Shown: positions 528-32,949 of the stretch, in pieces
How the letters are laid out: each line of letters starts with the position of its first letter
Numbering within the stretch: the stretch's first letter is position 1
DNA from: a virus
Lineage: Duplodnaviria; Caudoviricetes
Virus record (IMG/VR): IMGVR_UViG_3300048851_000230
Location: 1-32,949 of that record
DNA length: 32,949 nucleotides
Reading direction: 5' to 3' (one strand)
Notes under the pieces: model-generated
Told to the model about the DNA's origin: nothing
Database searches by the model: none
The model's input: only the letters and a program-made list of their open reading frames with translations
Translations under genes and position numbers: made by a program

Positions 528-669
528 TATTTAGTATCCGACGCACAACGCGCGCCGTGTCGCAATCCTGTGAGTCGAGAAAGCCTCTGATAAAGTCCTC
601 GATACCGAAGATGTCGTGCGGCGCAATTCCTTCGGCAATTGCCAATTCTGTAAGATCATTCGTCGTCAT
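502..669 (-). CDS. Small hypothetical protein (55 aa, MTTNDLTELAIAEG...), not in the ORF track
   Basis: Hand-translated open frame from ATG 669 to TAA 502, co-directional with and just downstream of 706-957. Confidence 0.4.
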   Translation of the reverse strand: MTTNDLTELAIAEGIAPHDIFGIEDFIRGFLDSQDCDTARVVRRILNTGTGLGSS

Positions 670-685
670 GGCTTGATCTTACAGA
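647..685. repeat. 12-bp perfect inverted repeat TCTGTAAGATCA-N15-TGATCTTACAGA
   Basis: Arms 647-658 and 674-685 flank the ATG at 669 and contain the GTAAGAT core also seen in the origin repeats. Confidence 0.75.
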
Positions 686-705
686 TTGTCGCCCGCAATC
701 GCAAT

Positions 706-957
706 TTACTTTCGCATCTCTACCATGCTCGCGCGGATCATCGCGGTTCTATTCACGCGAGCTTCAATCTCCGCCATCTCGAATGGTAGCAGCAACTGTC
801 GCACCGCGTCTAACATCTCTCGGCGCTCCACTTCGCGTGCAGCCGGGTAAAACTCGGCGTCCATCGCGTCCATCATCAATACAGTCTCTGCGTCCTTAAG
901 GTCCTTATAGGTCATCGTTGTCTCCAGACGGCCAATTTGTTCTGCTACTGGCCTCAA
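706..957 (-). CDS. Hypothetical protein (83 aa, helical)
   Basis: ORF divergent from the AlpA-like gene. Its TTG start lies 4 nt after a minus-strand TATAAATA (969-962); an internal ATG start is possible. Confidence 0.55.
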   Translation of the reverse strand: MRPVAEQIGRLETTMTYKDLKDAETVLMMDAMDAEFYPAAREVERREMLDAVRQLLLPFEMAEIEARVNRTAMIRASMVEMRK

Positions 958-961
958 TCCC

Positions 962-1032
962 TATTTATACAAAACGATGCGAACCCTACTTCTTTTTAGA
1001 TATTGCAGCGAAATTGCCATCTCTGCTAAATA
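962..1032. promoter_or_regulatory. Back-to-back TAAATA elements (minus 967-962, plus 1027-1032): divergent promoter region
   Basis: AT-rich intergenic gap between divergent genes with the motif on each strand pointing outward. Confidence 0.55.
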
Positions 1033-1051
1033 GATAATAATGGAGGAAACA

Positions 1052-1234
1052 ATGATGGATACGATGAATACAAAGGAAGTGGCGGAGATGATCGGCGTGA
1101 CGCGCGCCACGGTATTGAACTGGTTGAACCGTGGCGATTTCGCACCGGCTCTACGTCTCAGCCCAAGGGTTACGGTCTACCGTCGCGCGGACGTTCTGGC
1201 GTGGATGGAAAGTAAATTGACTAATAAGCACTGA
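1052..1234 (+). CDS. AlpA/excisionase-like winged-HTH DNA-binding protein
   Basis: MNTKEVAEMIGVTRATVLNWLNRGDFAPALRLSPR..YRRADVLAWM is a typical AlpA/Xis pattern. GGAGG at 1042-1046 favours ATG 1052 over 1040. Confidence 0.85.
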   Translation: MMDTMNTKEVAEMIGVTRATVLNWLNRGDFAPALRLSPRVTVYRRADVLAWMESKLTNKH

Positions 1235-1247: not shown

Positions 1248-1405
1248 TATAAATAGGATGTCGTTGTAGCAGACGACGGAGTTTTCAAGGTCAAGACTAA
1301 ATATTGAATAGGAAGTGCTGTTAGGGTATCTTACTTCATATTGTCTCGAAAATGAATGGCTCACGCGTCTGCTACCGCGTGGGCCATTTTCGTTTTAGGA
1401 GATTT
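1248..1405 (+). promoter_or_regulatory. TATAAATA plus structured leader (putative attenuator) of the Prim-Pol gene
   Basis: Hairpin 1260-1277 has GTAGCA in its loop; terminator-like hairpin 1355-1388 has loop TCTGCTAC. 1266-1275 is perfectly complementary to 1366-1375. Confidence 0.6.
1355..1396 (+). terminator. Intrinsic terminator-like hairpin just upstream of the Prim-Pol RBS
   Basis: 13-bp stem AATGGCTCACGCG/CGCGTGGGCCATT (one G-U pair) followed by TTCGTTTT. Confidence 0.65.
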
Positions 1406-2326
1406 ATGGAAATTACTACGAACCCTTTTTGGACAGCGCTACCGGGTTGGTCGCTGTTTCCGCTCCGCCACCAGTCCAAGCGTCCGGTAGGATCATGGGG
1501 CGATTACATGTTCTTCCCGGCCAGCACGATCCAGCGCGAGATGTGGGCGAGCGAGTTCGAAAACTTCGGCGTCGTTACCGGCTCGGTATCCGGCCTCGTG
1601 GTCGTAGACATCGATAACGACGCGGCGTTTCTGGAGTGCGAGGCGCGCGGCCTGACAACAACCGTCACGATCAAGACGCCTCGTGGCTATCACCTCTACT
1701 ACCAGCATCCCGGTATCGCGATCTCGAACAGCGCGGGCAAGCTGGCGGATGGCGTGGACATCCGTGGCGATGGCGGGTTCTGCGTAGGTCCGGGCAGCTA
1801 TTACCGTCCGAACACCGCAGAGCGCGCACAGGGCAAGCTTGCCGGGGAATACTGGCCAGTCCCGACGATGGGTCCGGGTGAAGTCCCGTTGGCACCCCTC
1901 CCCGCGTGGATCATCGATCACCTTAAGTCGCACGAGCCAAAGGAACCGCAGGACCGTCCTACAGCGCCTGTAGGGGTCGAGACGGTCGAAGCACCGGCAA
2001 TGCCGTCTGCTTACGCTCTGGCGGCTGTGCGGGGGGAATTAGAACACTTACGCGGCACACGGTCCGGGTCGAGAAATCAGAACCTGTTCATCGCATCGGC
2101 ACGCCTTGGCGAATTCGTCGCGGCGGGATCGTTGACGCAGACCGATGCAGAACACGAATTGACGGAAGCAGCCAACGTTATCGGCCTTCCGTCCGATGAA
2201 TCCAATGCGACGATAAAGTCCGGGCTGTCGCATGGTCTACAAAAGCCCCGTGTAGCACCAACACCGAAACCCGCGATGTCAGCAGCAATGGCGCGGAAAC
2301 TACTAAAAAGCTCGAAAGGAAAGTAA
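1406..2326 (+). CDS. Bifunctional DNA primase/polymerase (Prim-Pol) with a C-terminal PriCT-like helical domain
   Basis: Motifs GVVTG..GLVVVDID, TPRGYHLYY, VDIRGDGGFCVGPGS and C-terminal GSRNQNLF. SD AGGAG before ATG 1406, not the ORF-track start 1352. Confidence 0.9.
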   Translation: MEITTNPFWTALPGWSLFPLRHQSKRPVGSWGDYMFFPASTIQREMWASEFENFGVVTGSVSGLVVVDIDNDAAFLECEARGLTTTVTIKTPRGYHLYYQHPGIAISNSAGKLADGVDIRGDGGFCVGPGSYYRPNTAERAQGKLAGEYWPVPTMGPGEVPLAPLPAWIIDHLKSHEPKEPQDRPTAPVGVETVEAPAMPSAYALAAVRGELEHLRGTRSGSRNQNLFIASARLGEFVAAGSLTQTDAEHELTEAANVIGLPSDESNATIKSGLSHGLQKPRVAPTPKPAMSAAMARKLLKSSKGK

Positions 2327-2336
2327 ATAAGAGACA

Positions 2337-3875: not shown

Positions 3876-3885
3876 CCCTTTACCG

Positions 3886-4421: not shown

Positions 4422-4457
4422 TAGCTATTTAATCAAAAGAGCCTACCGGCTGTCAAT

Positions 4458-4949
4458 TTACTTCGCCTTGGCGGCAGCAGCTTCCTTAGCCTTACGGCGT
4501 GCCTCTACCGACTCTTTGAATTTCGCGTGACGCGCTGGTGTCCACCCTGCACGGCCAGACTCACCCGCAGGCGCTGCACGCTTCTTCGTGGCCTTTACCG
4601 GCGCTTCAGTGCCATCGCCTACAAGCTGGTCGTCCAACTCGCCTGCATCAACGCTGGCCTTAAGGTGGTTCAGTGCATCCGCGAAACGCTCGGCAGGGAT
4701 TGGCAACGGGTAGACCTTACCAATCTTGATCTCGCGACCGTCCAGCGTGGGCGAAAACATCACGACATTGTTGTTCGCGCTCCACCACTTGTCCGCTCCT
4801 CGTGGCTGCTTGCCCTCGCTGAACTGCTTAATCGTCGCGTCAATTTTTTTGATGAACGGCTTACGCGCCTTGGTGGGATCGGGCGCGGTATGGTGGAAAA
4901 CATCGTGAAGCTTGGCATCAACGAGCGATAGGAAATCGGAAAGCGCCAT
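4458..4949 (-). CDS. Hypothetical accessory protein (163 aa) with a basic, Ala/Lys-rich C-terminal tail
   Basis: Clean ORF with AGGGA before the ATG and TTGACA on the minus strand at 5011-5006; contains VDAGELD and ends GWTPARHAKFKESVEARRKAK... Confidence 0.75.
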   Translation of the reverse strand: MALSDFLSLVDAKLHDVFHHTAPDPTKARKPFIKKIDATIKQFSEGKQPRGADKWWSANNNVVMFSPTLDGREIKIGKVYPLPIPAERFADALNHLKASVDAGELDDQLVGDGTEAPVKATKKRAAPAGESGRAGWTPARHAKFKESVEARRKAKEAAAAKAK

Positions 4950-8625: not shown

Positions 8626-8840
8626 GACGACCTCCAGAGCGTGGTATCTCTCCAGCTAATTATTCGAGCAAGCGAAATCGGCGGACGTGCAGCGCGCGAG
8701 CGATGTAGACTAAATAAAGATACGGATCGTTGGGTCAGATGTCGCGCGCTGGCTATGGTTGAGATTTCAACGCAAGGTGGCGGTTAGAGTCCGCCTCACC
8801 CTGCGATCGAGGCACCATCTGAAGCACTATCGTTGCTCCA

Positions 8841-8928: not shown

Positions 8929-8950
8929 CTCCAGCTAAATACCGGATGCA
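8929..8950 (+). repeat. 22-bp direct repeat CTCCAGCTAAATACCGGATGCA (second copy 20696-20717)
   Basis: Exact match spanning the TAAATA element and start codon of both genes. Confidence 0.9.
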
Positions 8951-9353
8951 AGCTGGACGTAAGCCAAAGACTGTCGCGCAAAAGCGCCTAAGCAACACCC
9001 TACAACCGTGTCGGGACGGCGCTAAAGTCGCGCTCGCGATCATTCCTGCCAACGCTCCAACCGCACCAGACTGGATTACCGATGGTGCACGTGAAGTGTG
9101 GACGGCAGATGTTAAGCGCGCCGTTGGAATGGGTCTGGCGGAAGTCGATCAATCGATGTTCGCGCTTTATTGCGAAACGATGGCGTCGTTCATCGCGAGC
9201 GTAAAGGATGGCGCGGTTCCGAACGCGGCCTTCCGCAGTGAACTCCGCAAGCAGATGGAATTGCTCGGCATCGCAGGCGCTAAGTCTCGACTGGCCAAAG
9301 TCGCGAGCAACGAACCAGCAAAACCGTCACCCTATAGCGTCCGCCCTAAGTAA
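8946..9353 (+). CDS. terS: Terminase small subunit (P27-like)
   Basis: MQAGRKPKT..KRL..AP.W....AREVW..D..MFALYCE..LG...SR pattern, directly upstream of TerL; ATG 4 nt after TAAATA. Confidence 0.85.
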   Translation: MQAGRKPKTVAQKRLSNTLQPCRDGAKVALAIIPANAPTAPDWITDGAREVWTADVKRAVGMGLAEVDQSMFALYCETMASFIASVKDGAVPNAAFRSELRKQMELLGIAGAKSRLAKVASNEPAKPSPYSVRPK

Positions 9354-9356
9354 CAG

Positions 9357-11024
9357 GTGCGACTTAAAAAAGATTCCTACGCTTGGACTGCTATCGACTA
9401 CGCTAAACGGGTTGTAAGTGGTAAGATTGACGCTTGTTTGCAGGTCAAACAGGCCTGCGAACGCACGTTACAGGACCTTAAACGGGACGATTTGACGTTC
9501 GATAACGACCGTATCGACCACGTTTGCGACTTCGCGAGCAACCTACCGCACGTCATCGGCCCCTTAAGCGGGACAAATATCCGCTTAGAGCCGTTCCAAA
9601 TCTACATTCTGGCCAACCTTTTCGGCTTTCTCGACAAGCAAACAGGCCTGAGAAAGTATCGCGAAGCGTTCATTCTGCTACCGCGTGGCTCTGCTAAGTC
9701 CACATTGGCCAGCATTCTCGCGCTCTACATGACGTTCTGTGAAGCGCAGGGCGGAGCCGAAGGCTACAGCGGCGCTACCAGCCTTGCACAGGCTAACAAG
9801 GTATTCGAACCCGCCCGCATGATGGTGCAGCGGACGCCAGCACTGGCGGAAGCGCTCGGCTTGGAAGTCGCGGCGCGCTCGATCTATCAGGTAGAGACTG
9901 GTTCGCGGTTCTCGCCTGTCATCGCCAACACCAAAGACGGCGATATCCCTTGGATCGCGATTTGTGACGAATTGCACCAAGCAAAAAACGGCGTGCAGCT
10001 TGCGGCCTTCAGAACCGGGATGGGTAAGCGACGTGGTAGCGACCCGCTGTTGCTTATCATCTCGACAGCCGGGACAAACGTGGCTGGCGTATGCCGACAG
10101 GAACAGCTTTACTTCGAATCCGTGCTTAATGGCACGCTTAAGGACGATTCCAAATTCGCTTTGATCTACACAATCGATAAGGACGATGATTGGAAAGACT
10201 TTAAGGTATGGCGCAAGGCTAATCCTGCTTTCGGGATATCGGTAGACGAGGCGCATCTTAAGCGCGAGTATGATAAAGCTTTGCAGTCACCATCTGCGCA
10301 GGCGGATTGTCTAACCAAATACCTTAATGTCTGGTGCAACACCGCCACTGGTTGGCTGAATATGAAGCATTGGACGGCAGCGGCAGACCCTGCGTTTGTC
10401 ATCCCGAACGGTTCTATCGTTTGGCTTGGTGTCGATCTCTCGACCAAGACGGACATTACCGCGCTGTGTCTGTGCTGGATCGGTCCGGACGGTCGTAAAG
10501 GTTTCATCCCTTATCTGTTCCTCCCGGCTGGTGCTCTGGATCGATCACCGAACGCGAAGGCTTACGCAGACTGGATTGCACGCGGCGCATTGATCCGAAC
10601 CGAAGGCGAAGCGTCCGACCATGAAGTAGTCGAGGCCAAGATACGCGAGCTTTGCGCCACGTATAAGGTCGAGATGATCCTATACGACAGTTGGCAGAGC
10701 GCGAGCATGATGCAGCGCCTTGCGAAAGACGGTCTTAACGTGATGGAGTTTGCGCAGCGTGCGGCGAACTTTAGCGCGCCGATGATCGATTTTGAAGCGG
10801 AGTTGATGAACGGGTCAATCGTGCACAACGATAATCCGGTAATGAACTGGATGGCGTCTAATGCCTCGGTTGCACGTCGCGGTCCGCTAATCACGATCAC
10901 TAAGCCGACTGGCCAAGATGATCTTAAGATCGACGGCATGGTTACGGCGTTGATGGCTTATGCTATGGCTACGAAGGAAGCTCCCGCAGCTTCCGCACCA
11001 GTCGAGTTGTTTTGGCTTGATTAA
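9357..11024 (+). CDS. terL: Terminase large subunit (HK97-like)
   Basis: LEPFQ, Walker A PRGSAKST, Walker B ICDELH, ISTAG, KANP, nuclease GVDLS..D and KIDG; GTG start. Confidence 0.95.
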   Translation: MRLKKDSYAWTAIDYAKRVVSGKIDACLQVKQACERTLQDLKRDDLTFDNDRIDHVCDFASNLPHVIGPLSGTNIRLEPFQIYILANLFGFLDKQTGLRKYREAFILLPRGSAKSTLASILALYMTFCEAQGGAEGYSGATSLAQANKVFEPARMMVQRTPALAEALGLEVAARSIYQVETGSRFSPVIANTKDGDIPWIAICDELHQAKNGVQLAAFRTGMGKRRGSDPLLLIISTAGTNVAGVCRQEQLYFESVLNGTLKDDSKFALIYTIDKDDDWKDFKVWRKANPAFGISVDEAHLKREYDKALQSPSAQADCLTKYLNVWCNTATGWLNMKHWTAAADPAFVIPNGSIVWLGVDLSTKTDITALCLCWIGPDGRKGFIPYLFLPAGALDRSPNAKAYADWIARGALIRTEGEASDHEVVEAKIRELCATYKVEMILYDSWQSASMMQRLAKDGLNVMEFAQRAANFSAPMIDFEAELMNGSIVHNDNPVMNWMASNASVARRGPLITITKPTGQDDLKIDGMVTALMAYAMATKEAPAASAPVELFWLD

Positions 11025-11036
11025 GCTAAATAAACG

Positions 11037-12284: not shown

Positions 12285-12291
12285 ATAAAAG

Positions 12292-14080: not shown

Positions 14081-14105
14081 GAACCGATCATCTTCGATGA
14101 CTAAC

Positions 14106-14133
14106 AGGGCGGGTCGAAAGACCTGCCCTTTTT
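14106..14133 (+). terminator. Intrinsic terminator after the capsid gene
   Basis: AGGGCGGGTC-GAAA-GACCTGCCCT followed by a T run. Confidence 0.85.
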
Positions 14134-14152
14134 AGTTCCAGCTAAATAGAAA

Positions 14153-15625: not shown

Positions 15626-15638
15626 CGCACGCTCTGGA

Positions 15639-16097: not shown

Positions 16098-16098
16098 G

Positions 16099-16924: not shown

Positions 16925-16931
16925 ATAACAC

Positions 16932-19394: not shown

Positions 19395-19416
19395 GGTGAG
19401 ACGGCATAAATAAAGG

Positions 19417-20690: not shown

Positions 20691-20712
20691 GGCTACTCCA
20701 GCTAAATACCGG

Positions 20713-21147: not shown

Positions 21148-24100
21148 GTAAGGTAATTAAGATTGTCGCGCTTGTCGCGGTCGCGGCTGCAATCATCGTC
21201 TTTGCAGCACCTATCGCAGGCGCACTTGCATCCGCTGGTGCAGCGCTTGGTATCGGCGCTGGCGTTGCGTCTGCCGCTCTGATTTCCAGCGTCGTTGGTA
21301 TCGGCATAAGCCTTGGCTTGTCGGCAATATCTTCGGTGTTCATCAAGGCACCTAAGGGCGTCACACAATCGCTTGTAGATCGTCTTAATTCCAGCATCGT
21401 TCCAAGCGCACCGCGTAAGATCGTATTCGGACGCACAGCCGCTGGCAACGATGTTCGGTTCTTCGAGACGTGGGGGAATAAGAAAGACCAATACGCACAG
21501 GTGATCGCGCTTGCGAGCCATCGCGTGCAGGCGATTAAGACGTTCACGATTGAAGATGAACTGAGTTGGCAAGGCTACCTTACCGGCAAGTATGCGGCTG
21601 GTATTACGGTATTCCGCGCCATTACCGAAGGCACTGCGGCTAACGCGGCCTCGCTCGGCTCGGGATCATACTGGAACACCGCTTCTAAGTTTACCGGTTG
21701 TGCTTATCTCGCGATTAACTGGAAACTCGACAGCAAGATATTCACGTCTGGTATTCCGTCACGCAACGTTACGGTTGTCGAGGGTTGCCCTCTTTACGAT
21801 CCACGTCGCGACAGCACGCGTGGTGGTAGTGGTTCGCATCGCTCCAACGATCAATCGACATGGGCCTTTTACGATGGCGCTGTTGAACTTGGGCGCAACC
21901 CTGCCCTCGCTTTGCTCACCTACTTAATCGGCTACCGGATCAACGGTAAACTGGCGTGGGGAATGGGCGTTCCTATCGAACGCATCAATCTCGACAACTT
22001 TAAGATTTACGCGAACGTCTGCGAAGAACGCGTGTCGCGCGTCAATGGAACGACTGTCCAGCGCTATACTGTTGATGGCGTCCTATCGACCAGCGACACG
22101 CACGAGACGGCTATAAGCTCGATCTCCGCTGCAATGGGTTCGTGTAAGCTTACGGACGCTGGCGGGCGCTACACGCTGGTTGGCGGCTACGACGATACGA
22201 TGGGACCTAAGGTCGCATTCACGGAAAGCGACTTGGTAGCGGTTGCCGGTAGCGCGAGCCCTTACAATTGGACGCCAGCGCCAAGCGTTCGCGACACCTT
22301 TAACATCGCGCGCGGACGCTTTGCAGACCCTGCACAAGGCTACTCGCTGGTCGATTGGGGCGTAATCGAAACTGACCCGCTACCGGACTTGGTTCCGCGC
22401 ACGATGACGATAGACCTTGGCTTCGTGTCGAGTGCTGAGACGTGCCAACGTATCGCCAAACAGTTTCTGCTTAGGGAAGCTAAGACACCGGGCGTGTTCT
22501 CCGCGACGTTCGGACCTAAGGCTTTTGCAGCCGAAGTCGGTTCGCTCGTGACCTTAAGCCTTCCGGCGCAAGGTTGGAATAACAAGCTGTTCCGCGTCAT
22601 TGAACAGGCGGAAAATCACGACTTGCTCTTTACCATGACGCTTCGCGAAGATTCCCCGGATGTCTACGCTTGGGATCGCGAGGAAAAGCCACTCCCGGCC
22701 AGCATCCGTCCACCCGGTTACAATCCGCTGGATACGATCTCGCCTGCGAACCTAATGCTTACGACCAATAGCTTTGGTGGCGCTAACGGGATCAACATAT
22801 CGGAAGTCCGCGTAGCTTGGACGCCTGAAACATCGTTGCGCGTTCGCGGTATCCAGATCGAAAGCCGATTGGTTGGCAACACTGCTTGGACCGAAGAGGC
22901 CAGCTTGCATGATGCCGTCGCGGGCGAATTCCGCTTTTCGTCAAACGCACCGGGCGTAAGTGTCGAAGTAAGATGTCGTTTCCGTATGGATACCGGCGTT
23001 TATTCGCCTTGGGTATCCGGCACGATCAACACCGCTTCCGTCACCATCTCGTATGGCGATATCTTGGCTACGCCTACGACCTTGGCAGGAATCAACCCTA
23101 CCGAAGGCAACAAGCTCGGCGGGATCGAAACGGGCGCGACCGTGGGCGCACCTGTCGGAACCGCCATCGGCGGGCGTCCAGTTACGGATGTCCTCACACA
23201 ATTGGACGCGATCAAGACGGGCGGCTTCGCTGATACCGTTGCGCCACCCGTCCCGGCTGGCCTTGTGCTATCCTCGACCCTCACAGACGCGGGCGCTACG
23301 CTGGTTGCAACATGGTCCGCCAGTGTCGCGGATGATCTCGTAGGCTATGACATCTCGCTACAAGAGGAAACGGGCGGCGCTTTCGAGTTTGCGACGACTA
23401 CCACCCGCTACGAACGTCCCGCTGTGCTGCGCAATCAGGCTTACACCGCCAAGGTCCGCGCGTTCGATAAGGCTGGCAACCGTTCGGCTTGGTCCGCCCC
23501 GGTCACTTACACGACCGTTCGCGATACCGTTGCACCAGCGGTTGCTACCAGCTTGGCAGCGGACTCCAGTTTCGAGACTATCACGTTGCGTTGGACTAAT
23601 CCGAACGACGCAGACTTGGTTTCCGTCGAAGTCTGGTGGTCCGCGACAAACTCGACCACAGCGGCGACCCGTATCGCTACGCAGCGCGTGGCACCCGGCA
23701 CGTTGTCCCGCTTTATTCACACGGACTTAACAGCGGGCGCGAACAACTATTACTGGATTAAGACGGTTGATAGTTCGAATAACACGTCCGCGTTCAGCGC
23801 GGGTAGCGGTCTCGTGCAAACAACGTTGGTTGATATCTCGGGTGTTGCACCAGCGGTCGCAAACCAGCTTACACCGACTGTCTCGACCCTACCGTCTCCA
23901 ACGAACTACAGCGGGCCTAAACTGGTATTCAACAGCACGGATGGAAAGCTTTATCGTTACGTAGCGGGACAGTGGACGGCAGCAGTAGCGACAGCAGATT
24001 TCGACCATCTCATAACTGAAAACTTAATCGACTCTCGCGGCCTCGACATTCAAAGTCCAGACGGTTCGATAGTGTTCGGCAGTGATGGCCATATCTCGCC

Positions 24101-24626
24101 TATCGCCACGATCGATATCGGCACGGTAGACACCGGGACCAACAACGTTTTGCTATCAACGATCGCGAGCAACGCGCTTGTTCCATCGCTTAACTTCGTT
24201 GGCGAATTCGCCACGGCACCAACCGAAGCGCAGTTAGGCACGGACTGGCGACAGAACGCGGTCTACAAAAACTCGACCGATATGCGCTCTTACGTGCTTA
24301 CTGGCGAACCACTTAATTGGCAGGTCTACCTTGTAGATGGCCAGTCGTTCACCGTCTTGATTGAATCGAGCAACGGCAACATCTTCCGTCCGGGACAGTC
24401 ATCCTCGACCTTGCTTAAGGCGCGGTTGTTTAAGAATGGTGCAGAGGTAACGAGTTCGGCTCCTGACTCATGGTTCCGTTGGCGTCGTGTAAGCGGCATC
24501 CCGCGCGCGGCTCCTTTGGACGATGCAACGTTCAACACGAAGTATGTGACCGGCTACAAGCAGGTCATGATAAATATAGATGATATCTACGCGCGGGCAA
24601 CGTTCTTCGTTGACGTTGTAAACTAA
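21144..24626 (+). CDS. Tail tip / central host-specificity protein with FN3-like repeats
   Basis: PRKIVFG, G..LYDPR.DST.GGSG.HR, NPAL; FN3 patterns DTVAP..P..L and KVRAFDKAGNRS; Ig-like C-terminus. Confidence 0.85.
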   Translation: MSKVIKIVALVAVAAAIIVFAAPIAGALASAGAALGIGAGVASAALISSVVGIGISLGLSAISSVFIKAPKGVTQSLVDRLNSSIVPSAPRKIVFGRTAAGNDVRFFETWGNKKDQYAQVIALASHRVQAIKTFTIEDELSWQGYLTGKYAAGITVFRAITEGTAANAASLGSGSYWNTASKFTGCAYLAINWKLDSKIFTSGIPSRNVTVVEGCPLYDPRRDSTRGGSGSHRSNDQSTWAFYDGAVELGRNPALALLTYLIGYRINGKLAWGMGVPIERINLDNFKIYANVCEERVSRVNGTTVQRYTVDGVLSTSDTHETAISSISAAMGSCKLTDAGGRYTLVGGYDDTMGPKVAFTESDLVAVAGSASPYNWTPAPSVRDTFNIARGRFADPAQGYSLVDWGVIETDPLPDLVPRTMTIDLGFVSSAETCQRIAKQFLLREAKTPGVFSATFGPKAFAAEVGSLVTLSLPAQGWNNKLFRVIEQAENHDLLFTMTLREDSPDVYAWDREEKPLPASIRPPGYNPLDTISPANLMLTTNSFGGANGINISEVRVAWTPETSLRVRGIQIESRLVGNTAWTEEASLHDAVAGEFRFSSNAPGVSVEVRCRFRMDTGVYSPWVSGTINTASVTISYGDILATPTTLAGINPTEGNKLGGIETGATVGAPVGTAIGGRPVTDVLTQLDAIKTGGFADTVAPPVPAGLVLSSTLTDAGATLVATWSASVADDLVGYDISLQEETGGAFEFATTTTRYERPAVLRNQAYTAKVRAFDKAGNRSAWSAPVTYTTVRDTVAPAVATSLAADSSFETITLRWTNPNDADLVSVEVWWSATNSTTAATRIATQRVAPGTLSRFIHTDLTAGANNYYWIKTVDSSNNTSAFSAGSGLVQTTLVDISGVAPAVANQLTPTVSTLPSPTNYSGPKLVFNSTDGKLYRYVAGQWTAAVATADFDHLITENLIDSRGLDIQSPDGSIVFGSDGHISPIATIDIGTVDTGTNNVLLSTIASNALVPSLNFVGEFATAPTEAQLGTDWRQNAVYKNSTDMRSYVLTGEPLNWQVYLVDGQSFTVLIESSNGNIFRPGQSSSTLLKARLFKNGAEVTSSAPDSWFRWRRVSGIPRAAPLDDATFNTKYVTGYKQVMINIDDIYARATFFVDVVN

Positions 24627-24640
24627 ACCAAGGGGACCCG

Positions 24641-26107
24641 ATGACTATTCTTTCGACCGGCCAGCTAACGATTGTTGATAACAATGATGCGCGCCAAATT
24701 ACTGCTTACATCTCTGCCAATCCGGGCGTGCAGCAAATCTACACCAAGGATGAATCCTCGGTTACGTTTACGCCTAACTGGACCACGATTAACAGCAACG
24801 GTGGTCTGGAGCTTAAGGCTCTTGTCTACGCATCGCGCGCTGGTTCGCCAGAGGATATCACCGGGCAGCTTACCAACCGTAAGTGGACCACACAGGCAGG
24901 AGGCACGGCCCTCGTTACGGGCGCGGCATCCGCAGCCGACTTCGAAGCTGGCGGCACGCTTACCGTTACGCATTCAACGACCGTAAGTCTGTTGCAGGTC
25001 AAAGCAAACCTTAAGGTTGGTAATCCTCCGGAAGTGATCTTCTTCGAAGGCGATTACACCGACCCGGTTACGGGCTTGGTCTCTAAGGTCATCACCTCCA
25101 TTTCATTGACGCAGGTTAGAACCGGCACGAACGCCGTTTACATTAATCTTCGCGAAGTTGACGGCGACACGCTCGAACCAGACACTGGTAAAAGCACGGT
25201 CCGCGTTTTTGCCGACTTGGTTCGCGCGGCTGGCGTTGATGACAGTGGCGTCACGTATCGTTGGTATCAGTCGCCACATGGTGCACCCGACCAGATCGAC
25301 GGTAACCTAAGCGGTGTTGCGGCAAAGTATGGCCTCTTGACGACTGCACAGGTCGCGGCCTCTGCTACCGGCGCTATCGGTCAGTTTAACTCTGTCGCAC
25401 TTACGACCACGAACGTTCCGGACTCCGGTTGGACCGATGCGAAGGGTATCATCGTGCACGCCAGCGCGGTTGTCGATATCGGTAACTTCAAGGTCGAAAT
25501 CAAAGACAGCGATGGCACGATCTACCAGACCTACTTCACGCTTAAGGACGTTTCCGACCCTTACGAAGCTCGCCTGATTTCGACCGCTGGCGACAAGCTG
25601 CAAAACGGCGTTGGAACGACCGATGTTTATCCGCAGATTTATTACGGCGCGGAGAAAGTCAACAATACAACCGGTATGACGTTTGTCTGGTATTATGCGG
25701 ATCGGTCCGGACAGCGCGGCGCGTTCGTTGATACCACGCGCACTGCCGTAAGCGGTGGTCGCACCATCTCGGCTAACACCGTCAACAGCTTCACTTACAG
25801 CGGAACCGCGATCACGTTTTCGGCAGGCGATATTGTTAAGGCCAATCTTGCCGGTTCGGCGGAGTTTTTCGAAGTGGCATCTTCAAGCGGTAACACGGTT
25901 ACGGTTCGGGCACCGACGACCAACACGTGGATGGCTAACGCGTTCGTCAACCTTACGGCGAACAAGTATCTTAATGGCGCAATGTTCGTCTGCGTTGCAA
26001 CTCGCACCACAGTTGGAACAGCGGGTCCGGACAGTGATTCGAAGATTACGGTCACCGGCGACGACGTGGACGCTAAGGGTGTCATTACTGTTGAAGTCAA
26101 CAAGTAA
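24641..26107 (+). CDS. Tail structural protein, beta-rich (Ig-like repeats)
   Basis: Thr/Gly/Val-rich 488-aa ORF between tip and fibre genes; N-terminus similar to that of the next gene. Confidence 0.7.
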   Translation: MTILSTGQLTIVDNNDARQITAYISANPGVQQIYTKDESSVTFTPNWTTINSNGGLELKALVYASRAGSPEDITGQLTNRKWTTQAGGTALVTGAASAADFEAGGTLTVTHSTTVSLLQVKANLKVGNPPEVIFFEGDYTDPVTGLVSKVITSISLTQVRTGTNAVYINLREVDGDTLEPDTGKSTVRVFADLVRAAGVDDSGVTYRWYQSPHGAPDQIDGNLSGVAAKYGLLTTAQVAASATGAIGQFNSVALTTTNVPDSGWTDAKGIIVHASAVVDIGNFKVEIKDSDGTIYQTYFTLKDVSDPYEARLISTAGDKLQNGVGTTDVYPQIYYGAEKVNNTTGMTFVWYYADRSGQRGAFVDTTRTAVSGGRTISANTVNSFTYSGTAITFSAGDIVKANLAGSAEFFEVASSSGNTVTVRAPTTNTWMANAFVNLTANKYLNGAMFVCVATRTTVGTAGPDSDSKITVTGDDVDAKGVITVEVNK

Positions 26108-26138
26108 GGCTTAAGGGCCATGTAGCATAAATACCTAC

Positions 26139-29100
26139 ATGGCCCTTATCTCTGTCGGGCAGTTGTCGATCGTTGATGCGAACGACGGACTGTCAGCGCA
26201 ACTTACTTCTAACTCAATTGTCCTCCCGGCAGACGCAGCGGGTAACGTCAACTCTTACGCGGGCGCTGAAACGTCCTTCACGATATACGAAGGCGGCGTG
26301 GATATGTCCTCTAAGTGGGGATACTTCGTAAGCGCGACTGGTGGCGGTGTAACTTACCGCGATATCAACGACGCGGTTAATCGCTCGGACACTGGACCGA
26401 CGAACGGCGTTCTCGACTCCAACTACCTTAAGGTCACCAGCCTTACGCAATCGCTATCGTGGATCGACATAACCGCGACCCGTGCGCAGCAGCAGAACAT
26501 CGTCCGCCGCTACAGCATCGCTAAGGCCAATACAGGCGCTACAGGCACCAGAGGCACCCTCACAGCCACGCGCGCCATCGCGGGTGGTGTCTGGGTAGAT
26601 GCAGACGCAGCAACGGCTATCGCGGGCATTGGCGGCGGTTCTCCGATCAACGGGGATATCGTCACGCTCTTCCGTGCCTCCCCGGTCTTTTCCGAAACGC
26701 GTGTATTCAACGGAACCGCATGGATCACGATGGCCGCATATCTTGCGGGGTCGCAAATCATCGATGGATCGGTAAGCGGCGGTAAGCTTATTGCACAGTC
26801 GATTACTGCAACGCAGATCGCGGGCAGCACGATCACTGCAAACCAAATCGCGGGTAGCACAATCACCGCAAACCAGCTTGCCGCGAACACGATTACGGCA
26901 GCTAAGATTGCGGGTAACACGATCACAGCCGCACAGATCGCAGGCAACACCATCACGGCTGCACAGATTGCCGCTAACACGATCTCGACAAGTCGGCTCG
27001 CCGTTTCCGATTTCACCAACTACGCGGCGAATGGCGACCTGTCGCTGGGCAACGTTAATTGGTCCAATCTGGTAATTACCGATGCTACCAACGCGTATAA
27101 CGGAACGAACGTAATTGCGCTTCCTCCTGCTGCATCGGCGCGATACGCGAGCAATGATAACGTATTCAGCGTTAAGGGCGGCGACCAATTCTATTTGGAG
27201 TGGTGGGGTAAAGCCGGGTCCGACATGGATTCGAACTTTAACGTTTACCTTCGTGTGAACAATGCGGCTGGTGCACAGGTCCAGACCATCAACGTTGGCA
27301 GCATCAACGCAGCGCAGAAAGTCTACACGCTGGTTTCAGGGTCCGCGACGATCACCGCCACGGGCTACACCGCGTATCTCCAAATCAACTATAACAACAC
27401 GGTCGGCACCGGTTATATCGGCTTGGTTCGTCTGCGTCGTAAGAACGAAGGAAGCTTAATCGTTGATGGCGCGATTAGCGCTAATCAACTTTCCGCGCTT
27501 GCTGTCACCACTGATAAGCTGGCCGCTGGTGCAGTTACAGCAGACAAGCTTACGGCCAACTCGGTCACTGCGAACAAGCTTACGTTGTTGAGCCGTCCGA
27601 TCTCAACAATCGGCATTAACATGCGGGTCAACGCGTCTGGTTCGATGGATTGGGACGCAGGTCAAATCCGCACCATAGATGCGGCTGGTGCGATGATCTC
27701 TTACAGTGTTACGGCTGCGTCTAACGTCGCTTACAATGGATCGACGATCTATTTCTTTTTCATGCCGGGTCGGACTGGCATCGATTACAACAACGACCCG
27801 GCGAACCTTATCAATCCCGGTTACATTCCGCTCGCTGTCTGGAAAGGCGCGAGCGACCTTACGGTTATGTCTGGTGTCGGGACTTCGATTAACGGCGACC
27901 AGATTGTTGTCGGATCGATTAGCGCTAACAAGATTAAAGCCAACTCAATCACCGCCAACGAAATCGCAGGCGGCACCATCACGGGCGACAAGCTTGTAGC
28001 CGGGACCATCACGGCTGCACAAATCGCGGCGGGCGCTATTGTTGCTTCGAAGCTGGCAATCGGTAACAGCGACAACATAGTCCCTGATAGCGATATGCGC
28101 GACGTTACGTTTTGGATTGGCGACACTCCAACCGCGCTGGTCTATCAAGGCGACCAGAACGGCGGCTGGCCTTTCTCCCGTTACTTGCGGTTCAACACCA
28201 CAGGTGGCGCTTTCAGATATAGTGGACGCCCATTTCCTGTCGAACCCGGCGCTACCTATAAAATCAAACTCGGTATCTACATCGGTGGATCGACTGCCAA
28301 CACGTGGTTCAATCCGCTAATCAATGTTCCTTATGTTTCCAATATGTCGCTTAAGAGCGGCGCGAACGTGGCAACACCAGCGGCAGCAGATGCAACTAAC
28401 GGATATGTTGGTAATGTAGACTCGCGTTCTACGGAGTTCATCTTTACCAACCCTACTGGCATCACAGATAACGCAAACAGACTGCTAAGGTTTGAGTTCT
28501 ACGGAGACTTGCAAGGCGCTTACGTCGAATTCATGGTCTCGATGGTCCGCGTGTCGGATAACACGTTGATCCAAGACGGCGCGATCACGACCACGAAGAT
28601 TACCGTCAACTCGCTTAACGGTGACCGCATAAAGGTTGGCACGCTTGACGCTGATAGGATTAGCGCTACTTCCGTTCTGTCGAATACCATTACAGTATCG
28701 GGCGCATCAACGCTCGCTAACGCCTTCACCTCCGCAACGTGGGCCGGTGTCAGTGGAACGGGCAAGCCTGCCGACAACGCGACTGTAGGCGCACCAGCGG
28801 GGACCTACGTTGGCACGCAACTCGCACAGGACATGGTTACGGATGTCGCGAACGCGAAGGCGGCGGTCGGGCAGATCGCGAACGACAACGTTCTATCGAT
28901 CAACGAGAAGTCGGATATTATCCGCGAATGGAACCGCATCGATTCCAGCCGCACGAACCTTGGCGCACGTCTTGCCGCGCTCGGTTTGTCCAGAGCGGCT
29001 ATTGATACGGCTTACACGGCGCTGCAAAGCTATCTGGTAAGTTTGACGCCTGCGTGGTCGGACGTAACGCTTAACACGCCGATCGTTGGCGCGACCTTCC

Positions 29101-31613
29101 GTCAAAAGTTTCAGGACTATTACGCACAGGAAACCGCTGCGATCTCGAACGCGACCGCAACCGCCGCGACGACATCTGCATGGGCTGGCGTGACGGGGAC
29201 GGGGAAGCCTGCCGATGGTGCGACCGTTGGCGCTCCCGTGGGAACGAGTGTCGCGGGTATGCCTGCACAGGATATTGTTAATTCGGTTACCGCCGCGACT
29301 TCCGACAACATTCTATCGCCAGCCGAAAAGCCGATGATTTGGGCCGAATGGCAGCGCGTTCTAAGGGAAGAGGCCAGCTTATACACGCGTGGAACGGAGT
29401 ATGTGACGGGCGGCAAGGCCGCGCGCTATGACGTGCAGACTAAGCGCGATGCTGCGTCCACAGCTAAGACCAACCTGTCGAACTACATCAACACCTTCAG
29501 CCCCGCGCTTACTTCGTTTGAAACTACAACGGCGGTTAATGGCGCGTCCTTACGTGATCTCTTCTACGCCTATTACGACAAGGTAGAGCCCTTTAAGGTC
29601 GCTCTGCAATATCTCGCGTCTGAAAGCGGCGATTGGGCTTTGGTGACGGGCGCTGGTAAGGCGGCGGACAATGCAACCGTTGGTGCGCCTTCCGGAACCA
29701 ACGTTGGTTCAACACTCGCACAGACGATCGAAAGCCGTGCGAACAATCCAGCCGCGACCGTCAACGCGAACGTTACGACCATCGATCCGGGTAAGATTCT
29801 TATCTCGGGATCAACCACGCTTTCTTCGTGGCGGAATGGCGGAGACAACACCAAGATCGAAGGCGGATCGATTGCGGCTAACACAATTTCGGCTAACAAG
29901 ATTACGGTTGGTAGCCGTGGCTTAAGCTTCGAAGGAATCAACTTCGAGGTTAAGGCTGTGCCGACTTCCGCCCAAGAGCTAACTTGGAGCGGTGGTTACA
30001 TTCAGTATGTCAATGATGCAGGCACAGGCGTTGCGATCTTAATCGCGGCTGGCAACACGCTTGGCGTGACTAAGCGCTGCTTCGTCTACTGGACTAAAGG
30101 AGAAGCGGCGCTTCGTGTCGCTACTTCGGCAGAACCGATTATGGCAGATCAAAACTCCGTGATGATCGGGACGTATTACGGCGGAACCACGTTTAACATG
30201 ACGTATGGTTCTACCATCATCAATGGCGACCGTATCACCACGGGAAGCATCACAGCGAACCAGATTGCGGCTAACACCATCACGGCTGGCCAGATTGCGG
30301 CTGGATCGATCACAGCCAATGAACTCTCGGTTGGCGGAAGTGTCGAAGGTTTGCTGATGAACGGTGGTGCGGAAACTGGCACGACTGAGGGTTGGACCGG
30401 ACAGGGCTTCGTCTTGGCTGGCGGTAACGGCTCTGCATACAACCACGGACAGAACCCTAATAGCGGGAACGGCTATTCGTCTAAGGCCTTCCCGGTGACG
30501 GCTGGTCGAACCTACACGTTCAACTATGATCTCTATGGCACGAACGCTTACTTCCGCATCATGTGGGCGGCAGCAAAACCCGCGTTCAACACTCCCAATA
30601 ATGGCCAAGTCGATCTCCTCGCAAACGGCGGAAGCGGCAGCTTCTGGCAGTCTTACACGGGCGCTTGGACCGCACCTAATGGCGCGAATTGGGTAAGCAT
30701 CGTGCTTTACAACACCGGCACGTCTAACGCGATCTATTGGGATAACATACAGGTCTTTGAACAGGTGTCTGGCGTTCGGATTAAGAACGGCGCAATCACG
30801 GCGGATAAGATCGCGGTTGGTAGTCTCTCGGCTATCAACGCGAACATTGGCGAGGTGACGGCGGGAACGATCCGGAACGCGAGCGGCACCACGAACTTGA
30901 ACCTTAACAACGGGGATTTCACGTTCGATATCAACTCGTTTAAGCTTAACTCTCCCGGCAACGTCATTACCAATCCGTTTGAATATTCGAACGGCGCTCT
31001 TCGCATGAAAAACGTTGTGATCGATGGCGGCACAATCGCGAACGTGACTATTAGCACGTCTAAAATCATCGGTAACTCGGTGACGACCAACGCTTACTAC
31101 ACGATCGACAGCGGCGGCAGTATGGGCGGCTTCCCGCAAAACACCTTCGTTGACTTCAACACGACCAGCTATGGTGGCGGCGGCAGCGATGGCGGCGGCG
31201 GCGGCGGATCGGGCGGCGGCGGTGGCGCTTGTCCGGTTCTCAATACACCAATCTTGCTGGCAAACAGTGAACGCGATGGTCCGGGTGAAATCATCATGGC
31301 TGGCGACCTTAAGGCCGATCACGATTGGGTCTGGACGCAGCACGGGACGACTAAGGAATGGGGCGCGTTCCGGGTTACCTACGCGCGTGTCGTGCAAGAC
31401 GTTGTTGTTCACGAAGTCACGATCGACGGTAACATGCTTACGGCCTCGTGGGATCACCCGGTTTGGGTTGATGGCCGTTGGGAAACGATGGCCGCTCTGT
31501 CGGACACGTGTGGACGTGCAGACGTGATGCGTATCACTATCGATGACGCGCATACATACATCAGCAACGGCATTCTTTCGCACAACAAAGTCGTAAACCA
31601 ACAACAGGTATAA
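26139..31613 (+). CDS. Giant tail fibre/adhesin with 10-aa repeats, CBM-like domains and a C-terminal Hint domain
   Basis: ITAxQIAxxT repeats; W..V.G.GK.AD.ATVGAP three times (28740, 29181, 29634); NGxx-led beta-sandwich modules; Gly linker then C...TASWDHP...TYISNGILSHN. Confidence 0.85.
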   Translation: MALISVGQLSIVDANDGLSAQLTSNSIVLPADAAGNVNSYAGAETSFTIYEGGVDMSSKWGYFVSATGGGVTYRDINDAVNRSDTGPTNGVLDSNYLKVTSLTQSLSWIDITATRAQQQNIVRRYSIAKANTGATGTRGTLTATRAIAGGVWVDADAATAIAGIGGGSPINGDIVTLFRASPVFSETRVFNGTAWITMAAYLAGSQIIDGSVSGGKLIAQSITATQIAGSTITANQIAGSTITANQLAANTITAAKIAGNTITAAQIAGNTITAAQIAANTISTSRLAVSDFTNYAANGDLSLGNVNWSNLVITDATNAYNGTNVIALPPAASARYASNDNVFSVKGGDQFYLEWWGKAGSDMDSNFNVYLRVNNAAGAQVQTINVGSINAAQKVYTLVSGSATITATGYTAYLQINYNNTVGTGYIGLVRLRRKNEGSLIVDGAISANQLSALAVTTDKLAAGAVTADKLTANSVTANKLTLLSRPISTIGINMRVNASGSMDWDAGQIRTIDAAGAMISYSVTAASNVAYNGSTIYFFFMPGRTGIDYNNDPANLINPGYIPLAVWKGASDLTVMSGVGTSINGDQIVVGSISANKIKANSITANEIAGGTITGDKLVAGTITAAQIAAGAIVASKLAIGNSDNIVPDSDMRDVTFWIGDTPTALVYQGDQNGGWPFSRYLRFNTTGGAFRYSGRPFPVEPGATYKIKLGIYIGGSTANTWFNPLINVPYVSNMSLKSGANVATPAAADATNGYVGNVDSRSTEFIFTNPTGITDNANRLLRFEFYGDLQGAYVEFMVSMVRVSDNTLIQDGAITTTKITVNSLNGDRIKVGTLDADRISATSVLSNTITVSGASTLANAFTSATWAGVSGTGKPADNATVGAPAGTYVGTQLAQDMVTDVANAKAAVGQIANDNVLSINEKSDIIREWNRIDSSRTNLGARLAALGLSRAAIDTAYTALQSYLVSLTPAWSDVTLNTPIVGATFRQKFQDYYAQETAAISNATATAATTSAWAGVTGTGKPADGATVGAPVGTSVAGMPAQDIVNSVTAATSDNILSPAEKPMIWAEWQRVLREEASLYTRGTEYVTGGKAARYDVQTKRDAASTAKTNLSNYINTFSPALTSFETTTAVNGASLRDLFYAYYDKVEPFKVALQYLASESGDWALVTGAGKAADNATVGAPSGTNVGSTLAQTIESRANNPAATVNANVTTIDPGKILISGSTTLSSWRNGGDNTKIEGGSIAANTISANKITVGSRGLSFEGINFEVKAVPTSAQELTWSGGYIQYVNDAGTGVAILIAAGNTLGVTKRCFVYWTKGEAALRVATSAEPIMADQNSVMIGTYYGGTTFNMTYGSTIINGDRITTGSITANQIAANTITAGQIAAGSITANELSVGGSVEGLLMNGGAETGTTEGWTGQGFVLAGGNGSAYNHGQNPNSGNGYSSKAFPVTAGRTYTFNYDLYGTNAYFRIMWAAAKPAFNTPNNGQVDLLANGGSGSFWQSYTGAWTAPNGANWVSIVLYNTGTSNAIYWDNIQVFEQVSGVRIKNGAITADKIAVGSLSAINANIGEVTAGTIRNASGTTNLNLNNGDFTFDINSFKLNSPGNVITNPFEYSNGALRMKNVVIDGGTIANVTISTSKIIGNSVTTNAYYTIDSGGSMGGFPQNTFVDFNTTSYGGGGSDGGGGGGSGGGGGACPVLNTPILLANSERDGPGEIIMAGDLKADHDWVWTQHGTTKEWGAFRVTYARVVQDVVVHEVTIDGNMLTASWDHPVWVDGRWETMAALSDTCGRADVMRITIDDAHTYISNGILSHNKVVNQQQV
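31230..31586 (+). other. Hint (intein-like, BIL-type) domain, 119 aa
   Basis: N-terminal Cys (aa 1698), block B-like S-W-D-H-P, terminal His-Asn followed by Lys; no endonuclease insert. Confidence 0.85.
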
Positions 31614-31621
31614 AGGAAAAA

Positions 31622-31945
31622 ATGGCAACATTAGCAGTTAACATATCCTGCACTGCGGGGGGGACCACACAGGTTCGCGCAGACTTCGAAGTAAGGCGTT
31701 CGGGTAGCAGCAACGATCAAGCGCAAATCCGCATCGTAAGGCGGATAGATGGCCAAGGCGATGTCGTCTTACCATCCGCTCCGCAGTTCGTTTTACCATC
31801 CGATCGCGATACGCGCGGGTGGACGTTCCTTGACGTTAATCTTCCATCCGATGGCGTTTACACATACGTCCTTCAGATCAACCGGATTAACGGCGCGGGG
31901 ACATTCTACGCGATGGCATTAACAGCCGTGCACTACCGGAAGTGA
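31622..31945 (+). CDS. Small beta-sandwich tail-associated protein
   Basis: AAGGA SD right after the fibre stop; alternating beta-strand pattern, G.YTY.LQ. Confidence 0.7.
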   Translation: MATLAVNISCTAGGTTQVRADFEVRRSGSSNDQAQIRIVRRIDGQGDVVLPSAPQFVLPSDRDTRGWTFLDVNLPSDGVYTYVLQINRINGAGTFYAMALTAVHYRK

Positions 31946-32001
31946 CCTGTTCTTCCTTAACGCAAGCGGCCTGTGATTGCCTCCCGCGCATAAATAGCTC
32001 G

Positions 32002-32031
32002 ATGAAAATTGATAACACCAACGCGCGATGA
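32002..32031 (+). CDS. Putative 9-aa leaderless uORF (MKIDNTNAR)
   Basis: ATG 5 nt after TAAATA (31991-31996); its TGA overlaps the ATG at 32028. Confidence 0.35.
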   Translation: MKIDNTNAR

Positions 32032-32549
32032 ACCGCGCTGTAACACTCGGGATGACTAAGAGCCCCTTCCCTGCGTCCTTTGATGGATCATCGCCGCTGT
32101 TCGCGTTCGTTTTGTTCGCGATGATTGTCGCGAGTTGTCTCGCGCTTACTCTCGCGATCGTTCAGGTTAAGCAGCTATGGGCAGACCGTCGCTACGGTTA
32201 CGATCCATCATGGGCGATTAACTCACTGGTCTTAGCTGTGTGTTGCGGGATCATCATGCGATGCGTTCCAGACGCGGCTTACATGATAAGCTTTGGAGAT
32301 GCCGAACCAGCAACGCTACAGACGCTGCTTACGACCAAGCGTTTCATGGATTTCTTTTTCCTCGCACCGGTAATTTACTGGATGGCCATCTTTACGATGT
32401 GGCGCGCGGACATTGCGCTTAAGCTTCGGTCACCGTCTAACGTAGTTTATTCGGACTTTAGGTATGCGCGCCTTAAGCGCTTTATCGGCTTAGTAGGTTT
32501 GTCAGGCGCGCTCGCAATTGCTGTCACGCTTGGGCGGCTATATCATTAA
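32028..32549 (+). CDS. Membrane protein (about four TM segments), lysis-cassette position
   Basis: Four hydrophobic segments; follows the tail genes. Confidence 0.7.
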   Translation: MNRAVTLGMTKSPFPASFDGSSPLFAFVLFAMIVASCLALTLAIVQVKQLWADRRYGYDPSWAINSLVLAVCCGIIMRCVPDAAYMISFGDAEPATLQTLLTTKRFMDFFFLAPVIYWMAIFTMWRADIALKLRSPSNVVYSDFRYARLKRFIGLVGLSGALAIAVTLGRLYH

Positions 32550-32556
32550 ATAGAAG

Positions 32557-32949
32557 ATGATAGAACGCATCGCCAGCGCAAGTGGCTTGGTCCTTAGCGC
32601 TGGTGCTACAGCCGCTGGAACATCCGTTGCCATCTCCTCACCCTCGCCTTACGCGTGGCTTATCCCCGTGGTTTGCGGCTGCTTAGCCGCGCTTATCGTG
32701 CGTGGGATAACCGTCTCGACACCAACTAAGCGGAAGAAAGTTTGGCGCTTCGAACTCCTCGTAACGCTCTTGGTCTTGCTGCTTACGGGCGTCATTGTCG
32801 AGGAACAAGCGATGTCGGTTATGCGCGCGACTTTTTTGGGAATTGGCTTAGGCGGCACGGGTGTAGGCGTCATATCGTTTGCACGGAACGCATCGCTGGC
32901 GGCGCTTAAGTCGCTGGTTAGCGCGGCTGATACCACGCAGGATAAGTGA
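32557..32949 (+). CDS. Membrane protein, putative holin
   Basis: About three hydrophobic segments with a basic loop; ATG 4 nt after TAAATA. Confidence 0.55.
   Translation: MIERIASASGLVLSAGATAAGTSVAISSPSPYAWLIPVVCGCLAALIVRGITVSTPTKRKKVWRFELLVTLLVLLLTGVIVEEQAMSVMRATFLGIGLGGTGVGVISFARNASLAALKSLVSAADTTQDK

Follow-up and report, generated by a model that had tools for sequence, protein, structure and literature searches.

TAAATA boxes beside start codons in a sphingomonad prophage family: probable gp55-type promoters, perhaps served by a sigma factor borrowed from another phage

What reads a promoter-like motif that recurs, gene by gene, along a temperate siphophage in which no sigma factor gene is detected? 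The question is raised by the viral record IMGVR_UViG_3300048851_000230, a provirus call of which 32,949 nt (54.7% GC) were analysed; this whole stretch is termed the window below. A complete HK97-like head, neck and siphovirus tail module occupies its plus strand (8946..31945; PHROGs and Pfam), and the hexamer TAAATA stands close to many of the start codons. An original prediction, made from the letters alone, took the hexamers for -10-only promoters of the T4 late type, placed gene by gene, read by one alternative sigma factor and yielding leaderless messenger RNAs. Comparative genomics supports this interpretation, and on balance we consider it probable that TAAATA is a gp55-type, -10-only promoter whose sigma factor is borrowed from another phage present in the cell. 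Genomes and loci compared with the window carry working labels (G006, G311, L021 and the like).

All 21 predicted TAAATA copies are present, 18 on the plus and 3 on the minus strand. Dinucleotide shuffles averaged 8.66 copies with a maximum of 16, and 0 of 100 reached 21. On the plus strand the box ends 4 nt before the ATG of terS (box 8936..8941, ATG 8946, predicted leaderless), portal (11027..11032, ATG 11037), protease (12282..12287, over the portal stop, ATG 12292), head-tail adaptor or connector (14143..14148, ATG 14153), tape measure (16922..16927, over the upstream stop, ATG 16932), distal tail protein (19407..19412, ATG 19417), a DUF6950 gene (20703..20708, ATG 20713) and a holin-like membrane gene (32547..32552, over the upstream stop, ATG 32557). 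The gap is 5 nt at the tail fibre (26128..26133, ATG 26139) and at a 9-codon upstream open reading frame (uORF, 32002-32031), whose TGA overlaps the ATG (32028) of a 173-aa membrane gene (31991..32031 for box and uORF together), and 7 nt where a box lying over the primase stop (2324..2329) precedes the helicase-like ATG (2337). These gaps are as originally predicted, and the probability of finding at least 10 of 21 sites with an ATG at 4-5 nt is ~2e-11 (10 were observed). Motif and spacing are direct observations, as is the gene content. The predicted gene names were confirmed through PHROGs and Pfam, except that the supposed NlpC-like gene belongs to DUF6950 and the holin assignment is a sub-threshold Pfam match (E 0.056).

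The expected relation between boxes and Shine-Dalgarno (SD) sequences was also borne out. The ten starts 4-5 nt past a box show only weak anti-SD pairing (-2.7 to +1.7 kcal/mol), and SDs are present where the box is farther upstream (-6.9 to -9.3 kcal/mol at the capsid, tail tube, 24641, AlpA and primase starts). The boxes so placed lie in the 3'-terminal part of the protease gene (12867..12872), with the SD-led ATG of the capsid gene, 12929, following after 56 nt; 33 nt before the SD-led ATG (15678) of the major tail, or tail tube, protein (15639..15644); in the 3'-terminal part of the J-like gene (24571..24576), from which the SD-led ATG of a tail gene, 24641, is 64 nt away; as a pair at 1250 and 1298 upstream of the Prim-Pol gene, with an SD-led ATG at about 1406 (1250..1303); and before the AlpA/excisionase-type helix-turn-helix (HTH) gene (box 1027..1032, gene 1040-1234), where two ATGs share the reading frame, one 7 nt from the box without an SD (1040) and one 19 nt from it with an SD (1052). 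Another plus-strand copy lies between the packaging HNH gene (7968-8342) and terS (8711..8716), and terL is preceded by a one-mismatch box, TAAGTA (9347..9352), 4 nt before its GTG (9357). The three minus-strand boxes lie upstream of a hairpin region free of open reading frames (ORFs; about 400-523; box 528..533), upstream of a small ORF at 706-957 (962..967), and facing an ORF-poor, AT-rich tract at 3880-4420 that appears origin-like (4426..4431). The base preceding TAAATA is C or A at 18 of the 21 sites, and this short form recurs in Caulobacter phage Cr30 and in G311, a phage discussed below. A terminator-like hairpin with a T run follows the capsid gene (14089..14134), 14 nt before the next box; together with the way box-to-start distance varies with SD use, this hairpin ahead of the 14143 box points to transcription and not translation.

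Two subsidiary claims of the original prediction require amendment. It had seen no copy deep inside a coding sequence; two copies do lie within the 3' ends of genes (12867 and 24571), and four overlap an upstream TAA stop (2324, 12282, 16922 and 32547). It had also called the ORF-free segments beyond some boxes structured, a label that is borne out only beyond 533 (z -5.4), is borderline at 4431 (z -1.8) and fails at 8711 (z 0.2), so that the 8711 segment was dropped as a candidate structured non-coding RNA; Rfam returned no match.

The motif is conserved well beyond the window. A search with the portal protein retrieved 29 loci from IMG/VR and 6 from chromosomes of Sphingomonas and Sphingobium; among 251 Sphingomonas genomes 8 had a close portal, as did 2 among 301 genomes of Alphaproteobacteria. 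Among 31 loci, which are not independent, orthologous boxes are retained at 25-66% protein identity before portal (27/28), connector (24/25), capsid (27/30), tail tube (26/27), tape measure (22/24) and terL, where TAAATA replaces the window's TAAGTA in 19/27. When one portal set was reduced to 13 clusters at 70% identity, 9 had at least two sites at 4-5 nt in the stretch fetched. The capsid and tail tube boxes are leadered in every case (27-106 nt), and the Sphingobium members are leadered almost throughout, their boxes standing 15-33 nt ahead of the starts of virion genes. G006 has an element with host DNA around it, and some of the 24 boxes in that element precede leftward replication genes; no division into early and late sets is therefore apparent. 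TAAATA is absent from 105 kb of host DNA flanking the elements, and the HK97-like control phages Kronos, phiKM1 and PARCL1pr contain 0 sites with the 4-5-nt layout.

Nor does the host appear to use the box. Across 201 host-family genomes, counts of the motif before ATG follow a reversed-pattern control except at prophage clusters, and the 16 inspected sites outside such clusters resemble chance, ribosomal RNA or mobile DNA (TANNNT-ATG spacing in 125 kb of host flanks gave too few sites to be useful). The original prediction of no shared -35 element also held: at 221 element sites TTG is enriched at no upstream spacing, and T is depleted at the -35 spacing. Thus neither motif enrichment before host genes nor a -35 element, the marks of leaderless promoters served by host sigma70, was found.

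A gp55- or sigma-like gene, which the original prediction suggested seeking nearby, was found neither in the window nor in relatives flanked by host DNA, using PHROGs, Pfam, the gp55 family phrog_234 and a custom profile. With Cr30 as positive control, phrog_234 was not found in the window, 4 relatives, 5 hosts or 301 host-family genomes. Two of 251 Sphingomonas genomes do have a gp55-like gene, the same two (G711 and G606) emerging from two different gp55-type queries, and both genes sit within box-bearing prophage regions. G711 holds a 9-kb fragment of the window's own family (HNH 47% identical, and a conserved 163-aa gene 35% identical, to the window's) with 3 boxes and a T4-type gp55 fused to an HNH-like tail (G711:C14:5364-6203, L368). 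G606 holds a third prophage family, which has a jumbo-type gp55 (G606:C122:about 38000-38600, L364 and L367) together with an integrase and an endolysin; of its 27 boxes, about 14 are at 4-5 nt. The two sigmas are 35% identical to each other, which suggests separate captures and not one ancestral gene. A profile of eight sequences (G711, G606 and six phage sigmas) detected no further copy, either in the window or in the other elements. In G711 the sigma gene has the 163-aa gene on one side and the packaging HNH gene on the other, an interval that is fully sequenced in the window and contains no sigma there; ORF 5020-5340 was considered for its likeness to the C-terminal half of the G711 fusion and set aside as not significant (E 0.042). 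Elements with host DNA on both sides (G006, G007, G009 and G119) likewise lack a sigma, and their host genomes hold no resident copy. This absence from the window and from host-flanked relatives points to supply in trans.

Other regulators went undetected as well. PHROGs and Pfam detected no sigma, repressor, integrase or endolysin in the window, and neither a cI/Cro switch nor a Q-antiterminated single late operon was represented among the scanned ORFs of the window and its relatives. The scans of relatives covered 96 ORFs, then 150 (147 of 254 listed plus 3 from G008) and 150 further ORFs, and returned integrases, primases or helicases, methylases, toxin-antitoxin-like genes and MucR genes, with no cI-type repressor or Q. 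A lysin candidate occurred in one of ten elements (G005), the other nine having no detected endolysin. Since G001-G005 are bounded by provirus calls, and G008 and G010 by the ends of their contigs, these absences are firm only for G006, G007 and G009.

A candidate source for the missing factor came from scanning IMG/VR for the window's commonest 14-base box context. Most of the 64 loci returned were due to chance, and five had at least two sites with the layout; these led to G311, a jumbo phage of 499,572 nt with a gp55-family sigma (E 9e-25) of the RaK2/PA5oct/Phosso type. It has 76 sites at which TAAATA stands 4 nt before an ATG; the control has 0. The distance to the following ORF is 4 nt for 72 and 5 nt for 19 of its 171 boxes, and the corresponding figures for eight prophage records are 64 and 19 of 166. 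The resemblance extends to single bases: at 4-nt sites C precedes the box in 68% (G311) and 70% (prophages) and G precedes the ATG in 61% and 77%, a pyrimidine precedes the ATG at 5-nt sites in both, and C or A precedes the box in both sets overall. As G311 boxes precede capsid, portal and protease genes (leadered) and TerL, sheath, baseplate and endolysin genes, the box is very likely its late promoter. G311 and the prophages also share tail-associated genes and a methylase gene, the latter with 67% identity at the DNA level across 829 nt. The prs gene of G311 resembles those of Sphingomonadaceae: with 40 of the 41 genomes of this family its score is 467-508 bits, whereas the best of 127 other Alphaproteobacteria reaches 460.6 bits (the unpublished G355 is among these 127 and does not decide the matter), and Sphingomonadaceae account for 13 of its 15 taxon-named top matches. 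The 4-nt layout was absent from the cultured jumbos Phosso, Atu_ph07, PA5oct, XacN1 and RaK2 (0-5 sites), from Cr30 (0) and from two distant IMG/VR jumbos.

The box is not confined to the HK97-like family and its sigma-bearing relatives. P22-like podophage elements in G119 (two clusters, G119:C1:61500-98700 and 1490000-1525000) and G622 (G622:C7:271000-294600) use the same box, with 26 of 41 sites at 4-5 nt. They have no detected protein likeness to the window, and among 67 ORFs from two of them no sigma or repressor was found.

Taken together, the geometry that G311 and the prophages visibly share, the restriction of the gp55-like genes found in Sphingomonas genomes to box-bearing prophage regions and the lack of a host regulon support the predicted single alternative sigma, and make it highly probable that the boxes are gp55-type promoters. 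For the elements without a sigma, it probably comes from another phage; whether that phage would be a lytic jumbo in preference to a sigma-bearing temperate sister is close to an even call. In the mechanism we propose, every box would give rise to a short transcript of its own that begins 4-5 nt after it, placing the transcript start on or beside the AUG for most genes, which would be leaderless, and giving high-copy proteins (capsid and tail tube) an SD leader instead. As no host regulon carries the box, the element would need no repressor, and would lie silent until a gp55-coding phage infects. This helper would most plausibly be a jumbo myophage of Sphingomonadaceae such as G311 or, more rarely, a temperate phage that brings a gp55 of its own. 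The genes for excision, replication and the virion would thereupon all be expressed together, at a late stage of infection by the helper, and particles would likely be released when the helper lyses the cell. More broadly, several unrelated sphingomonad prophage families (HK97-like and P22-like), having no repressor or sigma of their own and mostly no endolysin, may be woken by a jumbo late sigma, express their replication and virion genes all at once from leaderless transcripts with gene-by-gene promoters, leave as their own particles at jumbo lysis and perhaps curb the jumbo burst, a few having captured gp55 and turned autonomous; this wider picture could about equally prove right or wrong. 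We infer promoter activity, start sites, helper and life cycle from sequence comparisons.

Several observations weigh against borrowing, and some against G311 as the lender. The window is incomplete: a matching contig, possibly its source, has 33,910 nt and runs 81 nt past the left end and about 880 nt past the right. With no integrase in the window either, a sigma could lie beyond the contig. G711 demonstrates that a member of the family is able to encode its own gp55. Most boxes have been lost in some members (G010; L021 has 1). A weak C bias 21 nt upstream of the box, present at 50% of the 221 element sites (both prophage families) and 27% in the jumbo, is unexplained. T4 late transcription in vivo requires gp33 and the gp45 clamp, according to the available part of PMC2988020, and both are undetected in G311; searches with PF16805 and PF09116 found neither in G000, G311, G119 or G006 and were positive in Cr30. 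The host assignment of G311 comes mainly from one gene, prs; its seryl-tRNA synthetase (SerRS) is closest to those of Acetobacteraceae and other Alphaproteobacteria (52-56%) and so indicates no more than that class, and near-identical copies of its sigma and a kinase lie on 1-2 kb contigs labelled as an Oxalobacteraceae metagenome-assembled genome. It is the only jumbo found with the 4-nt layout, and relatives of its capsid region have few 4-5-nt sites, though that region is leadered in G311 too.

Some of these points would be accommodated if the elements were autonomous with the sigma off the contig, or if the family comprised decaying descendants of temperate phages that captured gp55, in which case sigma-less copies would be relics or occasional cheats on sister prophages and no special link to jumbo phages would exist. 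The gp55-like genes of G711, in the same family, and of G606, the incompleteness of the window and the erosion of boxes in some members favour such a history. It is nevertheless unlikely, given that the interval holding the G711 sigma is fully sequenced in the window, that the host-flanked elements have no sigma and their hosts no resident copy, that many lineages without a sigma keep their boxes and long ORFs intact, and that the low identity of the G606 and G711 sigmas suggests separate captures. A reading by host RNA polymerase, through sigma70 or a host alternative sigma and perhaps with an unrecognised activator encoded by the element, would fit the Sphingomonadaceae hosts of all box-using families, the C at -21 seen in elements and not in the jumbo, and the conservation in many elements of the gene at 4458-4949; moreover, alphaproteobacterial -10 elements often lack the -7 T. 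We regard it as improbable, since motif counts in the 201 host-family genomes track the reversed control outside prophage clusters, TTG is wanting and T depleted at the -35 spacing, a 4-nt gap is short for sigma70, and the activator candidate at 4458-4949 is not sigma-like and was not found in the P22-like elements.

The remaining alternatives concern the motif itself. As an AU-rich translation-initiation element on one long late mRNA, TAAATA would account for its fixed spacing to start codons and for its replacing the SD in 10 genes. The same box, however, also stands ahead of ORF-free segments and, at distances of 19-150 nt, ahead of genes with an SD, is leadered throughout the Sphingobium members, follows a terminator-like hairpin and matches the late box of gp55 phages, and we hold this explanation to be very improbable. 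That the motif reflects chance, or is a by-product of TAA stops in tight gene junctions, is suggested by the four copies overlapping a stop codon and is hardly credible: the other 17 copies overlap none, the shuffles and the spacing statistic refute it, and the motif is kept across lineages and absent from the control phages. Borrowing of a gp55-type sigma from another phage is thus the explanation we prefer.

Further features of the window and its relatives deserve mention. PHROGs and Pfam also identified, beyond the virion module, the AlpA/excisionase HTH, Prim-Pol, helicase-like, HNH and HslV-like peptidase genes. The family-conserved 163-aa gene (4458..4949, minus strand) is SD-led and has no box. 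Its product was considered as the missing sigma and rejected on the strength of the Atlas, a structural model with beta strands (pLDDT, the predicted local distance difference test, 67.7) and the sigma profile; the model shows a beta-hairpin, and a likeness to DUF6641 is a lead only. The protein spans 150-190 aa across the family, adjoins the integrase in many members and has a basic C-terminus; it could be a nucleoid-type silencer or a recombination factor. After the helicase-like gene, 3880-4100 is an origin-like, ORF-free, AT-rich stretch with short repeats. The region 400-523, downstream of the minus-strand 533 box, holds a strong hairpin (z -5.4) between convergent units, which may be a terminator or a small RNA. 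The leader of the tail tube gene (15639-15677) can fold over its own SD. The uORF, predicted to be leaderless, and the 173-aa membrane gene (31991-32549, beside the holin-like gene) appear to be translationally coupled. CTTAAG and other palindromic hexamers are 4-6-fold over-represented across the window.

Elsewhere in the family, the elements at G006:C5:24545 and G008:C5:243106 adjoin what is apparently the same host gene, which we take to be comM-like, through a large serine recombinase, other members having tyrosine integrases. In L005-L008 and L027, a segment ending in opposed TAAATA boxes recurs inverted elsewhere in the same elements and is possibly a small mobile or duplicated unit. G311 (L146-L170) has 41 tRNA calls, SerRS, the tyrosyl and cysteinyl counterparts TyrRS and CysRS, ClpX/P/S, NAD salvage genes and an HfaB-like gene, and its GAF-HWE histidine kinase is conserved among related contigs.

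Should borrowing be confirmed, it would constitute a parasitism of one phage upon another: a prophage whose virion is complete would take only transcription, and probably lysis, from its helper, and the late sigma of a lytic phage would serve as the signal for prophage induction. It would explain repressor-less prophages which standard induction would miss, and would provide a signature in the sequence by which prophages could be matched to helpers, and jumbo phages to hosts. It also places gp55, regarded as a hallmark of the T4 superfamily, inside small temperate phages.

How the system relates to those already known may now be considered. T4 late promoters have only a -10-like element, as described in the accessible part of PMC7892883, and the bases following the 15639 box resemble those following the box in the T4 P23 oligonucleotide given there, probably by chance. 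In the portion of PMC2988020 available, gp55 alone supports basal initiation by core RNA polymerase without a -35 element, and gp45 with gp33 raises this several hundred-fold. The RaK2-like jumbo CBB has a gp55-like sigma and ATAAATA before structural genes, its gp33 and gp45 being undetected in the account that the accessible text of PMC5259590 provides, and group 2 jumbos encode sigma factors (PMC7824862, in the part available). In Cr30, CTAAATA precedes the capsid gene. Like the late promoters of T4 and CBB, the boxes described here have a TAAATA core, lack a -35 element and stand as many separate promoter-like sites before virion genes. Unlike them, they occur in a temperate HK97-like siphophage of roughly 37 kb, also before replication genes, and abut the start codon (against 0 such sites in Cr30 and 0-5 in the five cultured jumbos) in an element without detectable gp55.

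The T7 islands that Chen and Schneider are said to have described in 2006 are reportedly integrated elements carrying promoters for a transcription enzyme of a lytic phage which they themselves lack. Those promoters serve the single-subunit RNA polymerase of T7, whereas here the factor would be a sigma and the element encodes a full head and tail. Among satellites, P2 Ogr transactivates the late promoters of P4, and ICP1 triggers PLE (phage-inducible chromosomal island-like elements). P4, the phage-inducible chromosomal islands (PICI), their capsid-forming variants (cf-PICI) and PLE possess an integrase, an AlpA-type HTH, a primase or helicase and variable cargo, are activated by helpers, and borrow capsid and/or tail. 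The window's family resembles them in the first four respects, with AlpA, Prim-Pol and a helicase-like gene in the window and integrases in its relatives G001, G002, G004 and G005. Satellites lack capsid and/or tail, whereas the window has the full head, neck and tail module, and its family appears to borrow transcription, and probably lysis, instead.

That module is of the HK97-like kind found in lambdoid temperate phages, with which the window agrees in protein families and in the order HNH-terS-terL-portal-protease-capsid-neck-tail. It departs from them in having no cI/Cro/Q-type control that we could find, usually no detected endolysin in the family, and gene-by-gene boxes with an internal terminator-like hairpin in place of one antiterminated late operon. 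Within the literature covered, which left out most subscription papers, we found no description of prophages with T4-late promoters or a helper-supplied sigma. The TAAATA system may be best regarded as a variant of helper-dependent elements, unlike any described in the literature searched, which would combine a T4-type late promoter with a virion of its own.

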